Assembly: GCA_964609765.1 (NCBI GenBank)
Contig: CAZSSD010000001.1
Span: forward strand, 1-40,784
Length of the DNA: 40,784 nucleotides
Reading direction: 5' to 3'
From: an uncultured Candidatus Saccharibacteria bacterium
GTDB taxonomy: Bacteria; Patescibacteriota; Doudnabacteria; UBA920; 2-02-FULL-46-11
The notes beneath the pieces are model-generated. The model had not been told where the DNA came from. It worked only from the letters and a program-made list of their open reading frames with translations, and did not search any database. Every line of letters starts with the position of its first letter. The stretch's first letter is position 1. Position numbers and translations under genes: made by a program. Shown piece after piece: positions 2,717 through 40,386 of this stretch.

Positions 2717-2995
2717 ATGAGCGTACTCGTTAAACCAATTATTTCAGAAAAGGCCGGCAGCTTAACTAAATTAGGGAAGTACGTTTTTGAAGTAACGCGC
2801 AAGGCCACCGCTTCCGAGGTCAAGAAGGAAATAGAAAAGGTTTATAAAGTTAAAGTCGTTTCCGTTAACACAATTGTCGTGGCCGGTAAAAATCGCCGTT
2901 ATGGCCGAAGTGTCGGCAGAACCAGCGACCGCAAGAAGGCAGTGGTCACGCTCGTATCCGGTCAAACCATTGAAGGTATAAGCGAACCCGCATAA
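2717..2995 (+). CDS. rplW: 50S ribosomal protein L23
   Basis: ISEKA...YVFEV...ASEVKKEIEKVYKVKVVSVNT motif plus synteny. Confidence 0.95.
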   Translation: MSVLVKPIISEKAGSLTKLGKYVFEVTRKATASEVKKEIEKVYKVKVVSVNTIVVAGKNRRYGRSVGRTSDRKKAVVTLVSGQTIEGISEPA

Positions 2996-3009
2996 AAGGT
3001 TGAAATCTT

Positions 3010-3131
3010 AAATCCTAATTTCTAAATCCTAAATAATGTCCAAATTACAAGTTCAAAATTCAAAACGTTTCAGTAATTCGGATTTTGGATTTGGTGTTTA
3101 TTTGGAATTTAGAGTTTCTAATTTAGGATTT
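3010..3131 (+). repeat. AT-rich long imperfect hairpin element, copy A
   Basis: The terminal arms are aaatcctaa (3010-3018) and ttaggattt (3123-3131), with further internal complementary blocks. It is 122 nt long, the same length as copy B and roughly 80-85% identical to it by eye. Confidence 0.8.
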
Positions 3132-3141
3132 GGAGCGTAAG

Positions 3142-3221
3142 AACCTGCCCGCGGCGGGCAGAACCTTGCGGCGAGAGGTTTCAGCCTTCGGCTGACCTTC
3201 GGAGCCCCAAGGCGCCGTAAG
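3142..3221 (+). repeat. GC-rich structured module, copy 1 (74 nt plus one copy of the flanking CGTAAG)
   Basis: It is flanked by CGTAAG at 3136-3141 and 3216-3221. It contains the perfect hairpin ctgcccgc-g-gcgggcag (3145-3161) and a 9-bp outer stem cttgcggcg/cgccgtaag (3165-3173/3213-3221). Positions 3136-3229 are 94/94 identical to 5967-6060. Confidence 0.85.
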
Positions 3222-3227
3222 CGACAT

Positions 3228-4064
3228 ATGGCTATTAAAGTTTACAAACCAACATCAGCAGGTCGCCGCATCTCTTCGGTTTTGGATACTTCCCACCTAA
3301 CCAAGAAAAAGCCGGAGAAGAGTTTGATTATGCGCAAGAAGAATTCGGCGGGCCGAAACAACACCGGTACCATTACGGTACGCCACCGCGGCGGCGGCGC
3401 GCGCAAACTTATCAGGATAGTTGATAATAAGCGCGAGAAGTTAAATGTGCCGGCCAGAGTAACAGCTTTGGAGTACGATCCCAATCGTTCCGCCAGTTTG
3501 ATGCTTTTAACATATGCCGACGGCGAAAAGCGTTACAGTATTGCTCCGGTCGGCGTTTCCGTAAACCAGACAGTTTTGTCCGGCCAGCGCGTTGATGTTA
3601 GGCCCGGTAATCGCATGGCGCTTACCAATATGCCGCTCGGTACTTTTATCCATGATATAGAAATGGCACCGGGCCGCGGCGGCAAAATTGCGCGCAGCGC
3701 CGGCAGCTACGCTATTTTACAAGCTGTCGAAGCCGGCTTCGCTTTGCTCAAGATGCCATCCGGTGAAATCAGAAAGGTGCCCGCTGGCGGTTTTGCTTCG
3801 ATTGGTCAAGTCAGCAATTCCGACTGGCAGAATGTGCGTTGGGGCAAAGCTGGCCGGACCCGGCACCGCGGTTTTAGACCGACCGTGCTCGGTAAGTCAA
3901 TGAATCCGGTTGATCACCGCCATGGTGGCGGTGAAGGCCATTCGCCGATTGGTTTGAAGCGGCCGGTTACGCCTTGGGGTAAGCCGGCTTTGGGCGTGAA
4001 AACGCGCAATAAGACGAAGGCCTCTAATAAATTTATTGTTAAGCGCAGGCCAAAAGGTAAGTAG
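3228..4064 (+). CDS. rplB: 50S ribosomal protein L2
   Basis: RHRGGGARK...[13 protein letters not shown] motifs plus synteny. Confidence 0.98.
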
Positions 4065-4066
4065 GT

Positions 4067-4399
4067 ATGAGCAGAAGTTTAAAGAAAGGTCCTTTTGCGG
4101 ATGCAAAGTTAATGAAGAAGGTGTTGGCCGCCAAAGCCGCAGGCGGCAAGAGCACGATTAAAACATGGTCGCGCGATTCTATGGTTTTTCCAGAAATGGT
4201 TGGTTTAACTATTGCCGTGCATAATGGCAAGACCCATGTTCCGGTTTTTATTACCGAGAATATGGTTGGCCACCATCTGGGCGAGTTTGCGCCTACGCGC
4301 AAGTTTGTCGGACATGGTGGCAAGATGGCCAAGGCTCAAGAAGCATCCGCGACGGCGACTGCCGCCGCACCGGCACCAGCCGCGGAAGCAAAGAAATAA
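4067..4399 (+). CDS. rpsS: 30S ribosomal protein S19 (Ala-rich C-terminal tail)
   Basis: SRSLKKGPF...[31 protein letters not shown] motif. Confidence 0.97.
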
Positions 4400-4406
4400 T
4401 TGAATT

Positions 4407-4994
4407 ATGCCTAAGTCAAAGCCCGCAGAATTAAATAGTGAACCAAAGAAGCGCGCGCTCGTTTCCGCCCGCGTTGTTGGCGTTCATATTTCGCCGCGCA
4501 AATCAAGATTGGTGGCCGATTTAATCCGCGGCCAGTTTGCGGCGGAGGCCGTGGCTAGCTTGCAGCACTTGCCCAAACGAGCGGCTAAGCCGATTTTGAA
4601 ACTTCTACTTTCCGCCATTGCTAACGCCGAGCACAATTTGAAGCTACAGAAGGAAAACCTGAAGATTAATAAGATTACGGTTGACCAGGGTCCCAAGATA
4701 AAACGTTTCCAACCGCGCGCCTATGGCCGCGCCGGCGAGATACGTCGGCCCACCAGCCATATTTTTATCACCCTCGAGGAAGTGGCTGCGGTATCCAAGA
4801 AGGGTAAAAAATTCGCATTTCCAATTATATCCCGCCGGGTTCGCAAGGAAAAAGTTGAACATGACCACAAGCATGATGACAAAGACGAAAAGCGGGGCCA
4901 GATGCCAGGCGAAGAGCCGAAAGAAGTTAAGCCCAAGAGAGCTTTCTTTGGCGGTCGTAAAAATATATTAACTCGTAAGGGCGGAGAAAAGTAA
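4407..4994 (+). CDS. rplV: 50S ribosomal protein L22 with long charged C-terminal extension
   Basis: The core matches ISPRKSRLVADLIRG...PRAYGRAGEIRRPTSHI. It is followed by ~65 extra residues rich in K/E/D/H. Confidence 0.93.
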   Translation: MPKSKPAELNSEPKKRALVSARVVGVHISPRKSRLVADLIRGQFAAEAVASLQHLPKRAAKPILKLLLSAIANAEHNLKLQKENLKINKITVDQGPKIKRFQPRAYGRAGEIRRPTSHIFITLEEVAAVSKKGKKFAFPIISRRVRKEKVEHDHKHDDKDEKRGQMPGEEPKEVKPKRAFFGGRKNILTRKGGEK

Positions 4995-5039
4995 AGCATG
5001 AATAAGCAACTACCAATGACCAATAATCAATTAATATTC

Positions 5040-5130
5040 AAGAACCGATCTGCAAATTTTTGGAATTCGAGATTTAAAATTTGTTTGGGATTTGGGATTT
5101 GGAGTTTGGAGATTGGAGCGTAAGCGACGT
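5040..5130 (+). repeat. Hairpin-family element, copy C (G/T-rich arm plus conserved tail, no GC module)
   Basis: The sequence tttgggatttgggatttggagtttggagattggagcgtaagcgacgtATG shares its 3' tail ggagcgtaag|cgac with copies A and B. It represents the unoccupied CGTAAG site. Confidence 0.6.
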
Positions 5131-5805
5131 ATGGGTCACAAAATTTCACCAACAAGTTTAAGATTAGACATTACCGAGAACTGGAAATCTCGCTGGTTTA
5201 GTCGTTTGCATGCCCGCGATGTTTTGAAGCAAGATCATCTAATCCGGGAATTTATTAAGGATAATTACAAGAAAGCTAATATTTTGGGGGTAGATATAGA
5301 GCGTACGGCCAATAATCTTCATATTATAATCCGCACGCCTCGTCCCGGTATCTTAATTGGCCGCGGCGGTAGCGGTGTCGAAGAAATGCGCAAAAAAGTA
5401 CAGAAGCTGGCTAAGCTTGCGGTCCCGCCCCGCGTGACTATTCCCACCGAAGACATTAATACTTTGGCCAATTCCGCCCAGGCTGTGGCTTCGAGTATTG
5501 CTGAACAGATGGAAAAGCGTCTGCCCTATCGCCGTGTTATTAAGCAGTCTTTGGACAATCTTATGCAGGGTCGAATCAAGGGCGCCAAAATTGCGGTCGG
5601 GGGCCGGCTCGACGGCGGGGACATTGCGCGCACGGAGTCTTTGCAAAAAGGCAAGCTGCCTTTACACACGCTCCGCGCTAATATAGATTTTGCGCGCGCT
5701 ACCGCTTTTACCACTTATGGTACCGTTGGCGTCAAGGTTTGGGTTTACAAGGGTGATGTATTGGCAAAGTCGTCTAACGAAAAAACGTCTCTGCCGTCGC
5801 GATAG
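5131..5805 (+). CDS. rpsC: 30S ribosomal protein S3
   Basis: MGHKISPTSLRL starts at the ATG at 5131. The ORF-track start at 5092 is a TTG inside the repeat element. KH and S3-C motifs (GILIGRGGSGVEE, GAKIAVGGRL) are present. Confidence 0.95.
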   Translation: MGHKISPTSLRLDITENWKSRWFSRLHARDVLKQDHLIREFIKDNYKKANILGVDIERTANNLHIIIRTPRPGILIGRGGSGVEEMRKKVQKLAKLAVPPRVTIPTEDINTLANSAQAVASSIAEQMEKRLPYRRVIKQSLDNLMQGRIKGAKIAVGGRLDGGDIARTESLQKGKLPLHTLRANIDFARATAFTTYGTVGVKVWVYKGDVLAKSSNEKTSLPSR

Positions 5806-5840
5806 TGAGAAGGGTAAAGGTTGTCAATCAATTAAATTCT

Positions 5841-5962
5841 AAATCCTAATTTTTAAATCCTAAACAATGTTAAAATTCCAATTTCAAAATTTAAAACTTT
5901 TCCGAAATTCAGATTTTGGATTTGGAATTTATTTAGGTTTTAGAGTTTGTAATTTAGGATTT
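5841..5962 (+). repeat. AT-rich long imperfect hairpin element, copy B
   Basis: The terminal arms are aaatcctaa (5841-5849) and ttaggattt (5954-5962). It is 122 nt and a paralogue of copy A. Confidence 0.8.
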
Positions 5963-5972
5963 GGAACGTAAG

Positions 5973-6052
5973 AACCTGCCCGCGGCGGGCAGAACCTTGC
6001 GGCGAGAGGTTTCAGCCTTCGGCTGACCTTCGGAGCCCCAAGGCGCCGTAAG
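5973..6052 (+). repeat. GC-rich structured module, copy 2
   Basis: It is flanked by CGTAAG at 5967-5972 and 6047-6052. Positions 5967-6060 are identical to 3136-3229. Confidence 0.85.
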
Positions 6053-6060
6053 CGACATAT

Positions 6061-6468
6061 ATGTTAATTCCCAAAAAGGTCAAACATCGAAAACATCATA
6101 GAGGCCATACCCGCGGCAAGGCTACCAGCGGTACTGAAATCGCTTTTGGTTCGTATGGTTTAAAAGCCATGGAGAATGGCTGGCTGTCTAGTCGACAAAT
6201 AGAAGCCGCTCGGCGCGCCATGACCCGCAGTATTCAGAGAGGCGGTAAAATTTGGATTCGCGTTTTTCCGGATAAGCCCATTACTTTTCATGGTAATGAA
6301 TCAGTGATGGGTGGCGGCAAGGGCAGTGTTGAATATTTTGTCGCCCCGGTTTTAAAGGGCCGTGTTTTGTTCGAAATGGAAGGCGTGGCTGTGGAAGCTG
6401 CGGCCGAAGCCATGCGCTTGGCTGCCCATAAACTCCCCCTCAAGACTAAATTTTTAAGTAATAAGTAG
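6061..6468 (+). CDS. rplP: 50S ribosomal protein L16
   Basis: [15 protein letters not shown]...[12 protein letters not shown]...[14 protein letters not shown] motif. Confidence 0.98.
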
Positions 6469-6471
6469 AAT

Positions 6472-6699
6472 ATGGCCAAAGCTTTGGACGAATTAAAAGA
6501 ATTGCAGAATTTGAATGGCGCGCAATTGCAGGCTAAACTTCGCGAGCTGCGCGAAAAATTGCGCGACCTGTCTTTCCGTACCCGGGCTGACGAAATTCGT
6601 GATATGCATGAGTTTGGGAATACCAGAAAAAGCATTGCCAGAGTGTTGACTATGCTCAATAAGAAAAGTAAGATTAACCCGCCCTCGCGGAAAGCCTAG
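6472..6699 (+). CDS. rpmC: 50S ribosomal protein L29
   Basis: LKELQNLNGAQLQAKLRELREKL pattern. The position between rplP and rpsQ fits. Confidence 0.9.
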   Translation: MAKALDELKELQNLNGAQLQAKLRELREKLRDLSFRTRADEIRDMHEFGNTRKSIARVLTMLNKKSKINPPSRKA

Positions 6700-6730
6700 C
6701 GCGGGCGTGCAGGTTATTTAATGTAAAAAT

Positions 6731-6997
6731 ATGTCAGATACTACTGATCAAAAAGAGAATAAGAAAGTACACGGTGCTTTTGTGGGCACAGTCGTTTCCG
6801 ATAAGGCGAATAAGACGCGCGTGGTTGAAATTAGGCAGCGCCGCCGGCACCCCAAATATAAGAAGATTTACACCATTACGAAGCGTTTCCACGTGCATGA
6901 TCCCGAAAATGCCTACAAGGTCGGCGATAAGGTAAATTTCATCCCAACCCGACCGTATTCCAAGACGAAGAAGTTTATCATTATCGGAAAAGTATAA
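6731..6997 (+). CDS. rpsQ: 30S ribosomal protein S17
   Basis: GTVVSDKANKTRVVEI...HPKYKKIYTITKRFHVHD motif. Confidence 0.95.
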   Translation: MSDTTDQKENKKVHGAFVGTVVSDKANKTRVVEIRQRRRHPKYKKIYTITKRFHVHDPENAYKVGDKVNFIPTRPYSKTKKFIIIGKV

Positions 6998-7003
6998 TAT
7001 TAT

Positions 7004-7094
7004 GAAATCTCAAATCTCAAGCTACAAATCACAAACAATGCTGGAATTCAGATTTTCTGGTTTGTATTTTGGGATTTGTTATTTGTAATTTAGG
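7004..7094 (+). repeat. Hairpin-family element, copy D
   Basis: The A/C-rich arm is gaaatctcaaatctcaagctacaaatcacaaac and the G/T-rich arm is tttgtattttgggatttgttatttgtaattt. The tail gggcgttagcgatatatATG resembles the A/B/C tails. Confidence 0.6.
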
Positions 7095-7109
7095 GCGTTA
7101 GCGATATAT

Positions 7110-7481
7110 ATGCTGCAGATCAGAAGTTATCTAAAAGTTGCTGACAACACTGGCGCGAAAGAAATCGCCGTTTTCTCCGTATCTGGCCGCAACAAGAGAA
7201 GGTATGCCCGTTTAGGCGATGTTGTGCGCGCTTCAGTTAAAGCCGCTACGCCCAATGGACAGGTTAAAAAGGGTGATTCGGTCCACGCAGTCATTGTCCG
7301 AACCCGCAAAGAAGTTAGGCGCAAGGACGGTTCTTATATCCGTTTTGATGAAAATGCCGCGGTTTTGGTCAATGCTCAAACTAAAGAGCCCCGGGGCACG
7401 CGTATTTTTGGCCCCATCCCCCGAGAAGTAAGAGACGCTGGTTTTGCCAAGATCGCGTCATTGGCCCCGGAGGTTATCTAA
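7110..7481 (+). CDS. rplN: 50S ribosomal protein L14
   Basis: [18 protein letters not shown]...AVIVRTRKE...[10 protein letters not shown] motif. Confidence 0.98.
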
Positions 7482-12272: not shown

Positions 12273-12445
12273 CTTGTGAGGGGGACACTACGCTAACGCT
12301 TCGTTCCCCCTTCCCAACTCGCTTCGCTCGTTCCCTCCCCCTATATAAGGATTGCTCGGCCGGGCATAGCCCGAGCCTCGCAAGCGGGCACTTTTGTTTA
12401 GAGTGGCAAAGCTAGATCAAGCCTTATTCTTAGCCTTTTTTTAAT

Positions 12446-12476
12446 ACCGCCTTGCTTACGCTTAGGCGGTTTTTGT
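12446..12476 (+). terminator. Intrinsic terminator downstream of secY
   Basis: The 7-bp stem accgcct/aggcggt (12446-12452/12464-12470) has an 11-nt loop and is followed by ttttgtt. Confidence 0.6.
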
Positions 12477-12575
12477 TGGTATGTGCCATATTTTTTAGCG
12501 AATAGACCTCGGTGCACCGCATGCCCAACTGCCAGAGAGACGAAATAAACAGCCGAAAGGATGGTTTTTGTTAAT

Positions 12576-12604
12576 TTGACATGAGACCAATGTAAGAATA
12601 ATAT
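12576..12604 (+). promoter_or_regulatory. Near-consensus sigma70 promoter of the island ORF
   Basis: TTGACA (12576-12581), a 17-nt spacer, then TAATAT (12599-12604). It lies 76 nt upstream of the ATG at 12681. Confidence 0.55.
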
Positions 12605-12620
12605 TTATTGTTGATAACAA

Positions 12621-12665
12621 AGGCACCTGAACTTCGCTTAAAGGAGCGAATTCAGGCCTTTTCTT
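12621..12665 (+). promoter_or_regulatory. Terminator-like hairpin inside the 5' leader of the island ORF
   Basis: The arms aggcacctgaacttcgct (12621-12638) and agcgaattcaggcct (12645-12659) form 16 bp with two 1-nt bulges and a 6-nt loop. A ttttctt run follows, then the SD GAGGAGG (12666-12672) 8 nt before the ATG. Confidence 0.55.
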
Positions 12666-12680
12666 GAGGAGGACAATTCC

Positions 12681-12968
12681 ATGCATGATTCGACGACCAT
12701 CGCGGACACGGAACTGACCCATGTGGTGATCACCGGCCACGTACCGAATCGCGGCCATTCAAGACGCATCCTGGTCGAGTTCCGAGATGTGCCGACGGAG
12801 TGGCTGCGACCTCACAGTCCTGGCGCCAAAGTTCCAGCCGATGTCACGACACAGGAGATTCGGAAGCTGCTCGATGCGTTCACAGGCGCAGGCATGTCCG
12901 TGGCGTCTCTGGTGGCGTTAGCCCGAGCCCTGCCCGAACCGGTGCTCAGAGCGGCGCAAGGGTCGTGA
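12681..12968 (+). CDS. Hypothetical 95-aa protein of foreign (high-GC) composition
   Basis: An ATG with a strong SD, and its own promoter. By hand count the ORF has 179/288 G+C and 65/96 G/C-ending codons, against visibly AT-richer neighbours. I recognise no motif. The C-terminal half is Ala/Leu-rich and looks helical. Confidence 0.5.
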   Translation: MHDSTTIADTELTHVVITGHVPNRGHSRRILVEFRDVPTEWLRPHSPGAKVPADVTTQEIRKLLDAFTGAGMSVASLVALARALPEPVLRAAQGS

Positions 12969-12995
12969 CATCGCTGTTCGCCCGGACGGGCGCCT

Positions 12996-13026
12996 GGTGG
13001 TACGGCGAAGCAGTACGCCGGCCACC
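12996..13026 (+). terminator. GC-rich hairpin downstream of the island ORF
   Basis: ggtgg-ta-cggcg / cgccg-g-ccacc (12996-13007 / 13016-13026) with an 8-nt loop. No T-run follows, so its function as a terminator is uncertain. Confidence 0.3.
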
Positions 13027-13095
13027 GCCCTCCTAAGTTTGTTACGTGCTACGTGTTACGCGTAATGTGGCTGTAGTAGATTTAGGAGGGTTTTG

Positions 13096-33035: not shown

Positions 33036-33114
33036 ATCCTAAATAAATGCTAATGACCAAAATCCAAAACTATTTGAAATTTGTAATTTTGAATTTATTT
33101 AGAGCTTAGGATTT
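33027..33114 (+). repeat. Hairpin-family element, copy E
   Basis: Arms aaatcctaaatcctaaataaat (33027-33048) and atttatttagagcttaggattt (33093-33114) pair at 19/22 positions. The recJ stop codon (33033-33035) lies inside the left arm. Confidence 0.8.
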
Positions 33115-33138
33115 GATGCTTGGTTTTTAAAATAATTT

Positions 33139-39015: not shown

Positions 39016-39795
39016 ATGACCAGAGTCTTGGTTTTTGGTGTTTTTGATCTATTGCATCAAGGGCACGTAAATTTTTTAAGGCAAGCCAAAAAACTTGGCG
39101 ATTTTTTAATTGTCTCGGTTGCCCGCGACGAGAACGTTAAAAGGTCGAAAGGACATTGGCCAGTATTAGATGAACAAGAAAGATTGCATAATGTAAGAAA
39201 TATTACTTTTGTAGACGAAGTTTTACTGGGCGGCACTGATTATAAAAATGCGATAATGAGCATTAAAAAGATTAAGCCCGATATTGTTGCCTTAGGCTAT
39301 GACCAAAAGCCCTATCTTACCAAAACCGATAAAGGCTTAGAAAAATTATTGGGGGTAAAAGTTGTTCGTTTGCGTCCGCATCGGGCAAAAAGCCAAAAAA
39401 CTGATTATTTACGCTTTATTGGCGGTCGGGTAGAGCAAAACTTGGGCCGCGGCACGCGGTTGGGTTTTCCAACTGTTAATATTGCGGCGCCAAAAAATAT
39501 ACCGGAAGGAATATATATTGCCGGTGTTTCTGCGCCGCGCTTGCTTAAAAATCATCCGGCTTTGGCTTTTATTGGCGCGGCCGTGACTTTTGGGGAGAGC
39601 AAAAAACGTTTAGAGGCTTATCTATTGGATTGGACCGGTGATTTATCGGGAAGAAAGGTTTGTGTAGAATTGGTTCGTAAAATTCGCGATAATAAGAAAT
39701 TCAGATCAGCTAAAGATTTAGTTAAGCAGATGAAAAAAGACGAGCAAGCCGCCCGTAAATTTTTTATGCACTCACCAATTCGCGCGAATTGGTGA
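39016..39795 (+). CDS. ribF: Compact bifunctional FMN adenylyltransferase / riboflavin kinase (RibF-like)
   Basis: The N-terminal nucleotidyltransferase motif is FGVFDLLHQGHVNFL. The C-terminal flavokinase domain carries GRGTRLGFPTVNI...LEAYLLDWTGDLSGRKV...RDNKKFRSAKDLVKQMKKD. The last 8 codons and the stop lie in palindrome copy 1. Confidence 0.8.
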   Translation: MTRVLVFGVFDLLHQGHVNFLRQAKKLGDFLIVSVARDENVKRSKGHWPVLDEQERLHNVRNITFVDEVLLGGTDYKNAIMSIKKIKPDIVALGYDQKPYLTKTDKGLEKLLGVKVVRLRPHRAKSQKTDYLRFIGGRVEQNLGRGTRLGFPTVNIAAPKNIPEGIYIAGVSAPRLLKNHPALAFIGAAVTFGESKKRLEAYLLDWTGDLSGRKVCVELVRKIRDNKKFRSAKDLVKQMKKDEQAARKFFMHSPIRANW

Positions 39796-39796
39796 G
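39771..39796. repeat. Perfect 26-nt palindrome, copy 1
   Basis: ctcaccaattcgc|gcgaattggtgag. The 31 nt at 39769-39799 are identical to 40345-40375. Confidence 0.95.
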
Positions 39797-39802
39797 TAGC
39801 GC

Positions 39803-39814: not shown

Positions 39815-40081
39815 ATGAAGCGTTGGACACATATATTTAAGACTTTAGCTAATATCAACAGATTAAAGATAATCAAACTATTGTCATTGGGCAAAGCCAA
39901 GAATGTCACAGATATAGCTTTTGAATTAAAAATTTCTTTGAACGCTACCTCAAAACATCTGATCATGTTAGAAAAGATGGAGGTTTTAGAAAGTGATGGA
40001 CATGCCGGCCATGTATTTTATAAAATTAATCCCGCTGTACCGGCTGATTTTCAAAAAGTTATACACCTTATGTTAAAATAA
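39815..40081 (+). CDS. ArsR/SmtB-family winged-helix transcriptional regulator
   Basis: The product is 88 aa. FKTLANINRLKIIKLL...VTDIAFELKISLNATSKHLIMLEKMEVL is the typical ArsR HTH. Confidence 0.85.
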   Translation: MKRWTHIFKTLANINRLKIIKLLSLGKAKNVTDIAFELKISLNATSKHLIMLEKMEVLESDGHAGHVFYKINPAVPADFQKVIHLMLK

Positions 40082-40113
40082 CCACTAACCAATTCGCGCG
40101 AATTGGTTAGTGG
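40082..40113. repeat. Perfect 32-nt palindrome, copy 2
   Basis: ccactaaccaattcgc|gcgaattggttagtgg begins immediately after the ArsR stop. It shares the 20-nt core accaattcgcgcgaattggt with copies 1 and 3. The arm differences are compensatory. Confidence 0.95.
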
Positions 40114-40144: not shown

Positions 40145-40160
40145 ATATAAAATTGAATAT

Positions 40161-40334
40161 TTCCTTCAGGGCGGGGTGAGCCGAAAGGCAAGTCCCCACC
40201 GGCGGTGACAATCCGCGAGCGAGCCAAAAGGCGAGCAGGATCTGGTGGAATTCCAGAATCGACGGTATAGTCCGGATGAAAGAAGGAAACGCTTATGAGC
40301 GTTTTTCGCCCTGCTTAAAATTAAGCAGGTTTTT
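40161..40334 (+). promoter_or_regulatory. FMN riboswitch (RFN element) with terminator-type expression platform
   Basis: P1 is ttccttc/gaaggaa (40161-40167/40282-40288). The conserved cores are agggcggggtga...tccccaccggcggt, atccgcgagc and gatctggtggaattccagaatcgacggtatagtccggatg. Two hairpin plus T-run units follow (40287-40306 and 40310-40334). Confidence 0.9.
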
Positions 40335-40346
40335 ATTAAGGTTACA

Positions 40347-40372
40347 CTCACCAATTCGCGCGAATTGGTGAG
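40347..40372. repeat. Perfect 26-nt palindrome, copy 3
   Basis: It is identical to copy 1. It lies between the riboswitch terminators and the transporter ATG. Confidence 0.95.
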
Positions 40373-40386
40373 TAGTAGAAAAAGAT

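Follow-up and report, generated by a model that had tools for sequence, protein, structure and literature searches.

The stretch of DNA analysed here (the window) comprises positions 1 to 40,784 (forward strand) of the 118-kb contig CAZSSD010000001.1 from GenBank assembly GCA_964609765.1, and holds the S10/spc ribosomal-protein cluster and, after it, housekeeping genes, in the order EF-Tu, S10, L3, L4, L23, L2, S19, L22, S3, L16, L29, S17, L14 ... SecY, Adk. Its L2 protein matches that of Candidatus Doudnabacteria RIFCSPHIGHO2_02_FULL_46_11 at 82% and metagenome proteins at 86%, and the organism is therefore a bacterium of the candidate phyla radiation (CPR, Patescibacteria). Five spacers of the window carry AT-rich hairpin elements (A to E). 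Just ahead of the start codons of rplB (L2) and rplP (L16), the tails of elements A and B contain the same additional 80 bp of GC-rich DNA, composed of 74 bp and a duplicated CGTAAG; this sequence with both hexamers (the module) is our subject. The features concerned, with the evidence for them where it is of a special kind, are:

2996-3135, plus strand: host element A, an AT-rich hairpin (27% GC) that occupies the intercistronic spacer between L23 and L2 (folding, Tandem Repeats Finder, homologue in the sister genome L001)
3136-3141, plus strand: left CGTAAG direct repeat, the putative target site in the host tail (single copy in empty sites)
3142-3215, plus strand: 74-bp GC-rich insert, copy A (MAFFT gap, direct repeat, 6-mer statistics)
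3145-3161, plus strand: hairpin 1, a perfect 8-1-8 palindrome, CTGCCCGC-G-GCGGGCAG (all low-energy folds)
3165-3221, plus strand: second domain of the original prediction, a 9-bp stem CUUGCGGCG / CGCCGUAAG (3165-3173 / 3213-3221) around hairpin 2
3181-3195, plus strand: hairpin 2, UCAGCC-UUC-GGCUGA, a 6-bp stem (3181-3186 / 3190-3195) with a triloop (folding)
3216-3221, plus strand: right CGTAAG direct repeat
3222-3230, plus strand: host tail CGACAT, then the rplB ATG at 3228 (translation gives the canonical L2 N-terminus)
4995-5130, plus strand: element C in the L22-S3 spacer, of the same hairpin family; its tail, GGAGCGTAAG then CGACGT, is a putative unoccupied target
5806-5966, plus strand: host element B, the AT-rich hairpin between S3 and L16, with 85% identity to A
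5967-6052, plus strand: module copy B (74 bp with CGTAAG on either side), without any difference from 3136-3221
6053-6063, plus strand: host tail CGACATAT, then the rplP ATG at 6061, with one AT unit more than A
6998-7109, plus strand: element D in the S17-L14 spacer, of the same family; empty tail, GGGCGTTAG then CGATATAT
33036-33138, plus strand: element E in the RecJ-RNase HI spacer, a weaker AT-rich relative without the GCGNNAGCGAC tail, outside the ribosomal-protein cluster

The identity of the two copies, as first described, was borne out on direct reading of the window: 3136-3229 and 5967-6060 agree at 94 of 94 positions, and extending the comparison leftward by 15 nt adds a single mismatch (G at 3135, A at 5966), for 108/109. 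A repeat finder reports the larger unit (227 nt, 3003-3229 vs. 5834-6060) at 91%. All 20 mismatches fall in the 133 nt of the AT-rich portions (3003-3135 vs. 5834-5966, compared without gaps), which are thus 85% identical, the lower identity of the surrounding hairpins having also been claimed correctly. At that background rate, finding no mismatch in 94 nt has P = 2.2e-7, which speaks for a recent copy event rather than slow divergence.

The boundaries of the additional DNA are sharp. CGTAAG stands at 3136, 3216, 5967 and 6047, and only once in element C, at 5119; in a MAFFT alignment of five tails, C, D and the orthologous L23-L2 spacer of L001 are cleanly gapped over 80 columns, in agreement with the earlier account of 74 nt flanked by a duplicated CGTAAG relative to C. 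The tails read:

Tail A: GGAGCGTAAG-(74 nt)-CGTAAGCGACAT-ATG
Tail B: GGAACGTAAG-(74 nt)-CGTAAGCGACATAT-ATG
Tail C: GGAGCGTAAG-CGACGT-ATG
Tail D: GGGCGTTAG-CGATATAT-ATG
Tail L001 (orthologous L23-L2 spacer): GAAGCGATAG-CGACAT-ATG

Three empty sites are thereby available, two paralogous ones in the window (C, with hexamer CGTAAG at 5119-5124, and D, with CGTTAG at 7096-7101) and one orthologous site in the sister genome (L001, with CGATAG); together with the direct repeat they uphold the proposal of an insertion with a 6-bp duplication. The insert ends at 3221 and 6052, that is 6 nt (A) and 8 nt (B) ahead of ATG, just as had been measured before. To its right, A and B differ by one (AT) unit, 6 nt past the insert. 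Since the last mismatch on the left lies 1 nt outside the repeat, the identity tract is essentially repeat, insert, repeat and CGACAT. It does run up to the start codons, as the original prediction held, but its last 6-8 nt, CGACAT(AT), are host tail and not part of the module; where the module is lacking, as in C, D and L001, this tail is there all the same.

The arms of the host hairpins are 7-nt tandem repeats, AAATCCT / GGATTTN (Tandem Repeats Finder, period 7). Element A folds at -34.7 to -37.2 kcal/mol as sense RNA and at -24.8 kcal/mol as antisense, and over elements A-D the sense RNA is more stable by 8-11 kcal/mol; A and B have kept the fold despite 15% divergence (for example, C-G to U-A at 3061/3080). 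Elements A-D share the terminal tail GRRGCG(T/A)(T/A)AG-CGA(C/T)RT(AT)n, which adjoins the start codon. This tail is also what precedes S3, L14 and the L2 gene of L001, whose orthologous spacer holds a homologous hairpin ending in it. The heptamer varies by genome (hairpins at L001 5891-6000 and at L005 1245-1320, 3098-3182 and 3879-3946). These hairpins may serve as sites for RNase III or for processing, or they may be palindromes of a selfish kind; a literature search found no published work on such spacer elements in CPR bacteria.

The module is absent from the orthologous spacers of the relatives L001, L005, L008, L043, L045, L046 and L047. In L047, the closest relative by L16 (90%), the S3-L16 spacer is 18 nt long, and likewise in L001 (82% by L2); L005 and L008 (86% by L2) have shorter hairpins with other heptamers; in L043 (82% by L2) the L23-L2 spacer is occupied by another GC-rich element, 'type G'; and L045, L046 and the P0012 contig (64-75% by L2) are Doudnabacteria with compact operons and gaps of 3-30 nt. 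Since relatives have compact or different spacers, the spacer elements and the module are derived and lineage-specific, belonging to one Doudnabacteria subclade. Host hairpin B arose after the lineage parted from the 90% relative, and its 15% divergence from A has built up since then; with zero divergence between its own copies, the module should therefore be much younger than either host hairpin. The indel, its repeat, the empty sites, the contrast in identity, the restriction to one clade and the lack of copies in the databases searched are all observations; that the module is recent and mobile is what we infer.

In composition the 80-bp insert (3142-3221) stands apart: its GC content is 67.5%, where the host hairpins have 24-27% and the window as a whole has 47.8%. 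It contains internal direct repeats (AGAACCT, GCGGCG and CCTTCGG, twice each), and its repeated 6-mers number 6 where 1.2 are expected (P = 0.007). The module folds better than its shuffles on both strands (sense -39.5 kcal/mol, z = -2.6; antisense -39.0 kcal/mol, z = -2.0). Its suboptimal ensemble holds three topologies within 1.3 kcal/mol of each other, at -40.4 (the minimum free energy structure, MFE), -39.5 and -39.1 kcal/mol, and the frequency of the MFE structure is 0.15. Hairpin 1 (3145-3161) and hairpin 2 (3181-3195) are the only parts constant across folds; outside them, CUUGCG(GCG) can pair with either copy of CGUAAG (the upstream one being 3136-3141), or CCUUG with CAAGG (3209-3213).

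The structural claims made from the letters alone fared unevenly against these results. The perfect 8-bp GC hairpin at 3145-3161 is found in every low-energy fold. The 9-bp outer stem does occur, but in only one of the three topologies (-39.1 vs. -40.4 kcal/mol for the MFE). The register of the stem said to be capped by UUCG does not fit a C(UUCG)G tetraloop; this stem has 6 bp and a UUC triloop. A single defined two-part fold finds no support, given the near-isoenergetic alternatives and an antisense strand as stable as the sense. A G-U pair valid only in the sense RNA had also been put forward; the structure on both strands makes this single pair weak evidence for RNA-level selection. Because its two strands fold equally well, unlike those of the host hairpins, the module resembles a DNA palindrome rather than a sense-selected RNA.

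Further copies were sought widely. Searches of the window and relatives with blastn-short and nhmmer gave two copies only, and a covariance model of the module run on 13 sources recovered both known copies at 122 bits and no further one. The public collections were scanned with exact 20-22-mers or an 18-base spaced pattern, by which diverged copies may be missed: a 20-mer from hairpin 2 matched GTDB species genomes once, by chance, within coding sequence of Stappia; Joint Genome Institute (JGI) metagenomes had no match to a 22-mer of hairpin 1; and the pattern GAGAGGTT-N6-TTC-N6-CCTTCGG had 21 matches in JGI metagenomes, all by chance, and none in IMG/VR. The 17-nt palindrome of hairpin 1 had 12 matches in IMG/VR, none of which was inspected, while all other pattern matches that were inspected are chance. 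With blastn, phage and plasmid collections yielded chance fragments only.

Four of the 21 JGI pattern matches belong to an unrelated double-hairpin repeat. This repeat, AACCTCTCTC-(GC hairpin, UUCG loop)-GAGAGAGGTT-(second hairpin, UUCG loop), was observed at L017 1603-1702, L020 9288-9387, L024 ~2890-2990 and L027 1506-1605; it is interspersed and intergenic on several contigs of two JGI metagenomes, apparently of a non-CPR genome, and came up solely through its fit to the search pattern. The weak covariance-model matches in L020 and L027 are biased, these loci having been picked by the search pattern.

Known RNA families do not account for the module. Rfam, including its ribozyme and ribosomal-protein leader models, gave no match to it at the gathering threshold (whole window) or at E ≤ 10 (2950-7150 and 3120-3245); the sole cmscan match in 3120-3245 at E ≤ 10 was a 16.7-bit antisense TLS-PK6, a chance hit, and the FMN riboswitch at 40158-40291, serving as positive control, was detected at 96 bits. 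No Rfam aptamer matches the module, nor did the 126-nt search at E ≤ 10 find a covariance-model match to the self-cleaving ribozymes (hammerhead, twister, twister-sister, pistol, hatchet, HDV-like). Leaders of ribosomal-protein operons (the S10 leader bound by L4, the spc site bound by S8) are likewise structured RNAs directly upstream of ribosomal-protein cistrons, but they are protein-specific rRNA mimics conserved across lineages, whereas the module is identical before two genes and missing in sisters. No Rfam leader matches, and the seven relatives listed above show no conservation in the same spacers, the closest included; the original prediction's point that this is not a protein-specific autoregulatory leader holds. 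ARAGORN finds no tRNA-like fold, and the RYYYAAC / GTTRRRY ends of an integron attC site are lacking.

Among DNA elements, the module resembles transcribed intergenic repeats (Correia, ERIC, REP, RPE, MITE), yet it lacks what defines each of these families. Correia/NEMIS elements of Neisseria, ERIC/IRU elements of enterobacteria and REP/BIME sequences are hairpin-forming noncoding spacer repeats of 35-150 bp that are co-transcribed, are present or absent at orthologous sites and can affect both how mRNA is processed and how stable it is; the host hairpins and the nested module act alike. In contrast to Correia and ERIC elements the module is without terminal inverted repeats, and in contrast to REP it has no GTAG-headed palindrome; from all three it also differs in its two copies only, in its 6-bp direct repeat (not TA or none) and in being GC-rich in an AT-rich host. 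We know of no cognate transposase or RAYT for it, and no transposase, RAYT, TnpA or TnpB is found among the 20 open reading frames of the 40.8-kb window scanned against Pfam. Compared with REP and REPIN sequences (for REP/RAYT background, see PMC2817692), hairpin 1 is a 17-nt perfect palindrome after GTAAGAAC, with no GTAG head, and the other 55 nt are not REP-like.

Miniature inverted-repeat transposable elements (MITEs), including nested ones, are similar in being small and non-autonomous, with a short target duplication and a stable structure, and in lying nested in another repeat. The duplication is present here (CGTAAG at 3136/3216 and 5967/6047, against one hexamer, in places a variant, at each of the three empty sites), and dispersed copies number two in 40.8 kb. 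The module differs from MITEs, however, in its termini, the ends AACCTGCC... / ...CCAAGGCGC being non-complementary in all 6 boundary rotations, and in that no parent insertion sequence was found. Palindrome-associated elements (PATEs) of the IS200/IS605 type and other Y1-transposase cargo are alike in their lack of inverted termini, in having a hairpin near each end and in orientation-specific insertion after a fixed short sequence, which here would be GTAAG. Both copies follow GTAAG in the same orientation with a hairpin near each end (n = 2), and the right end carries the GTAAG motif, which can mimic a target duplication; on the other hand, the two hairpins are dissimilar and unrelated in sequence, only 3 nt separate hairpin 1 from the boundary, the window has no TnpA/TnpB, and exact-pattern scans of the public collections found no related ends. 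Palindromic elements of Rickettsia (RPEs) offer a further likeness as selfish palindromic repeats in the reduced genomes of host-dependent bacteria, tolerated in or near essential genes; they are 100-150 bp long, have many copies and often lie in frame within coding sequence, and there is no sequence kinship with the module.

The original prediction went on to state that the module must affect translation initiation of L2 and L16. We folded each spacer with 60 nt of coding sequence by partition function, taking the mean unpaired probability from -18 to +12. The value is 0.55 with the module for both copies, and 0.46 (A) or 0.51 (B) after in-silico deletion; furthermore, with CGTAAG duplicated, the 12-14 nt ahead of AUG read as in the native tail (...CGUAAGCGACAU-AUG). 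Predicted accessibility being unchanged and the native context rebuilt, the computation lends no support to such a necessity, although the module may act on initiation sterically or kinetically. Most genes of the window have no Shine-Dalgarno sequence. Repositioning of such a sequence by the fold was considered and set aside, the geometry leaving GGAG / GAGG far from AUG; so were an intrinsic terminator and an internal promoter, as no promoter-like or terminator-like site lies in or beside the module.

Taking these results together, the earlier observation is confirmed and its interpretation supported in part, and we lean, with modest confidence, to the view that the module is a very young, lineage-specific insertion of 80 bp, site- and orientation-specific and without terminal inverted repeats. 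Under this reading, older AT-rich heptamer hairpins would have colonised the S10/spc spacers in one Doudnabacteria subclade, and 74 bp of GC-rich, hairpin-forming DNA plus a duplicated CGTAAG would later have landed in the short 3' tail (GGAGCGTAAG / CGACAT-ATG) of such an element. That two paralogous hosts carry one and the same unit, identically oriented and placed at the same hexanucleotide, is most likely due to precise site-specific insertion or to copying of insert plus repeat, with short-tract gene conversion appearing less likely; a last mismatch just 1 nt beyond the repeat speaks more for precise insertion than for homologous conversion. The module would be co-transcribed, adding about -40 kcal/mol of GC-rich structure between the AT-rich hairpin and AUG, and we infer that two essential genes tolerate it because, through the CGTAAG duplication, the 12-14 nt upstream of AUG are again those of the native tail. 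Its effect is probably neutral to mildly modulatory, for instance as a structural barrier, or as a 5' stabiliser if the AT-rich hairpin is cleaved. Several points weigh against insertion by a mobile element: just two copies are visible, and these are identical; terminal inverted repeats, a transposase or RAYT (in the 40.8-kb window) and a parent element are lacking; GTDB species genomes, JGI metagenomes, IMG/VR, phages and plasmids gave no copy in the scans described; and element C offers a perfect target (GGAGCGTAAG / CGAC), yet is empty. In addition, A and B may have undergone gene conversion followed by one mutation at 3135, and the siting before two large-subunit genes could stem from selection rather than target preference.

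Two rivals invoke such processes directly. That the module is instead a selected cis-regulatory RNA, with a shared-protein site or stem switch co-regulating translation or stability of L2 and L16 and with copies kept identical by conversion, we regard as unlikely. Its position 6-8 nt upstream of two ribosomal-protein starts in one orientation, folding better than shuffles (z = -2.6), would suit that idea, as would the duplicated CGUAAG with its mutually exclusive CUUGCG(GCG) pairings, switch-like in principle, and surrounding hairpins that clearly act as sense-strand RNA structures. Against it, absence from the orthologous spacers of every relative examined excludes a conserved regulator, Rfam has no match, the antisense folds equally well, no fold dominates (MFE frequency 0.15), predicted AUG accessibility is the same with and without the module, and 100% identity over stems and loops alike is not the signature of structural selection. 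We are rather doubtful, too, that a single insertion in A or B was copied over 2.8 kb to the paralogous hairpin by homologous gene conversion, with the conserved stem base and tail providing the homology and no mobility of the element. Direct repeats within one operon are a classic substrate for conversion, and here the flanks are conserved (1 mismatch in the 27 nt of 3108-3134, identical CGACAT tails); homology on the right, however, extends for only 6-8 nt before the genes diverge, and the mismatch at 3135, 1 nt from the repeat, demands an endpoint almost exactly at the heterology boundary, or else a later mutation there while 108 positions remained unchanged.

The remaining explanations are far less probable. 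Loss from an ancestral state, with the module once in all hairpins and removed from C, D and the L001 ortholog by slippage between CGTAAG copies, appeals to a common event, precise deletion between short direct repeats, that leaves one repeat as in C; we nonetheless consider it very improbable, as it is the least parsimonious account (at least 3 independent precise deletions vs. one gain and one copy event), the hexamers of D and L001 are variant (CGTTAG, CGATAG), the copies of an old module would be expected to differ as much as their 85%-identical hosts do, and outgroup spacers are compact. A repeat-induced mis-join or consensus error producing a second copy might be feared for a 227-nt repeat inside a metagenome-assembled contig, but is scarcely credible: both copies lie in unique syntenic flanks in canonical order (L23-L2 ... 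S3-L16), the exact repeat, at 94 nt, is shorter than reads or final k-mers usually are, 20 differences between the host hairpins tell the loci apart, and no assembler error is known to insert 80 bp with a perfect target duplication. Equally hard to credit is a small self-cleaving ribozyme or riboswitch ahead of the start codons. The module is compact (~80 nt), GC-rich and multi-stemmed, in a polycistronic mRNA where processing is plausible; yet no model matched at E = 10 in the 126-nt or 4.2-kb search, while the FMN riboswitch elsewhere in the window is readily detected, the CUGANGA / GAAA core is missing, and an HDV-like double pseudoknot would need downstream strands from within the mutually unrelated coding sequences of L2 and L16.

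A more far-reaching version of the insertion reading, which we offer as a long shot, would have the module be a new micro-element of ~80 nt without terminal inverted repeats, site- and orientation-specific for a GCG-NNA-GC mini-hairpin upstream of CPR starts; it would serve as a portable RNA domain coupling L2/L16 expression or mRNA stability, as one layer of a nested clade-specific system (AT-rich heptamer hairpins, 'type G', module) remodelling a compact operon. The module alone is a two-copy orphan insertion of modest importance. The broader lead is that several families of structured, co-transcribed spacer elements appear to have invaded the S10/spc cluster, normally compact and strongly conserved, in one Doudnabacteria subclade, turning over between sister genomes and accepting nested insertions a few bases from essential starts. 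If these elements are processed or affect translation, they would provide lineage-specific regulation of ribosomal-protein operons in reduced genomes with weak Shine-Dalgarno usage; if purely selfish, they would gauge the insertion load that a core operon tolerates.

On the practical side, start-codon predictors can be led astray by elements of this sort. In the public annotation, L2 (P0001) is called with 246 aa, 32 residues short of the 278 aa obtained from the conserved N-terminus at 3228 (gene 3228-4064); its start was probably mispredicted for want of a Shine-Dalgarno sequence and because of the structured spacer before the true start.

The 'type G' family is GC-rich and structured, with members at 12281-12407 of the window, at L001 3613-4140, 5430-5611, 9192-9411 and 11155-11364, and at L043 1205-1429 and from 2648, in different ribosomal-protein spacers in different sister genomes. 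Polypyrimidine/polypurine outer arms enclose a core stem, UUGYUCGUC / GRCGAGCAA, around two GC hairpins, and there are compensatory changes at three base pairs. Kinship of the module with this family was rejected, since the type-G profile matches 12281-12407 and not the module. The window member is a truncated 5' half only, after secY (nhmmer E = 6.6e-15), and lies in a secY-adk spacer of 820 nt. The part that follows it, 12408-13092, contains a terminator-like hairpin (~12440-12475), a promoter-like TTGACA-17-TAATAT (12576-12604) and an orphan open reading frame (12681-12968; 95 aa, 62% GC) with a strong GAGGAGG Shine-Dalgarno sequence and no Pfam, NCBIfam or PHROG match; this looks like a small foreign insertion.

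Elsewhere in the cluster, two more spacers have strong structure and fold better in the sense direction: S10-L3 (1276-1422, 147 nt; -41.1 vs. -31.9 kcal/mol antisense) and EF-Tu-S10 (825-942, 118 nt; -26.3 vs. -22.4 kcal/mol). The L22 gene (4407-4994) encodes 195 aa, of which the Pfam domain covers residues 25-124 only, and L22 thus has a C-terminal extension of ~70 residues; the L22 genes of relatives are comparably long (183-207 aa). Near the far end of the window, a near-perfect palindrome of 28-31 bp, CACTCACCAATTCGCGCGAATTGGTGAGT, occurs in three copies (39769-39799, 40083-40113 and 40345-40375), located at the end of ribF, after a small gene for an ArsR-family helix-turn-helix protein (39815-40081) and after the FMN riboswitch; these copies could be operator sites or hairpin repeats.

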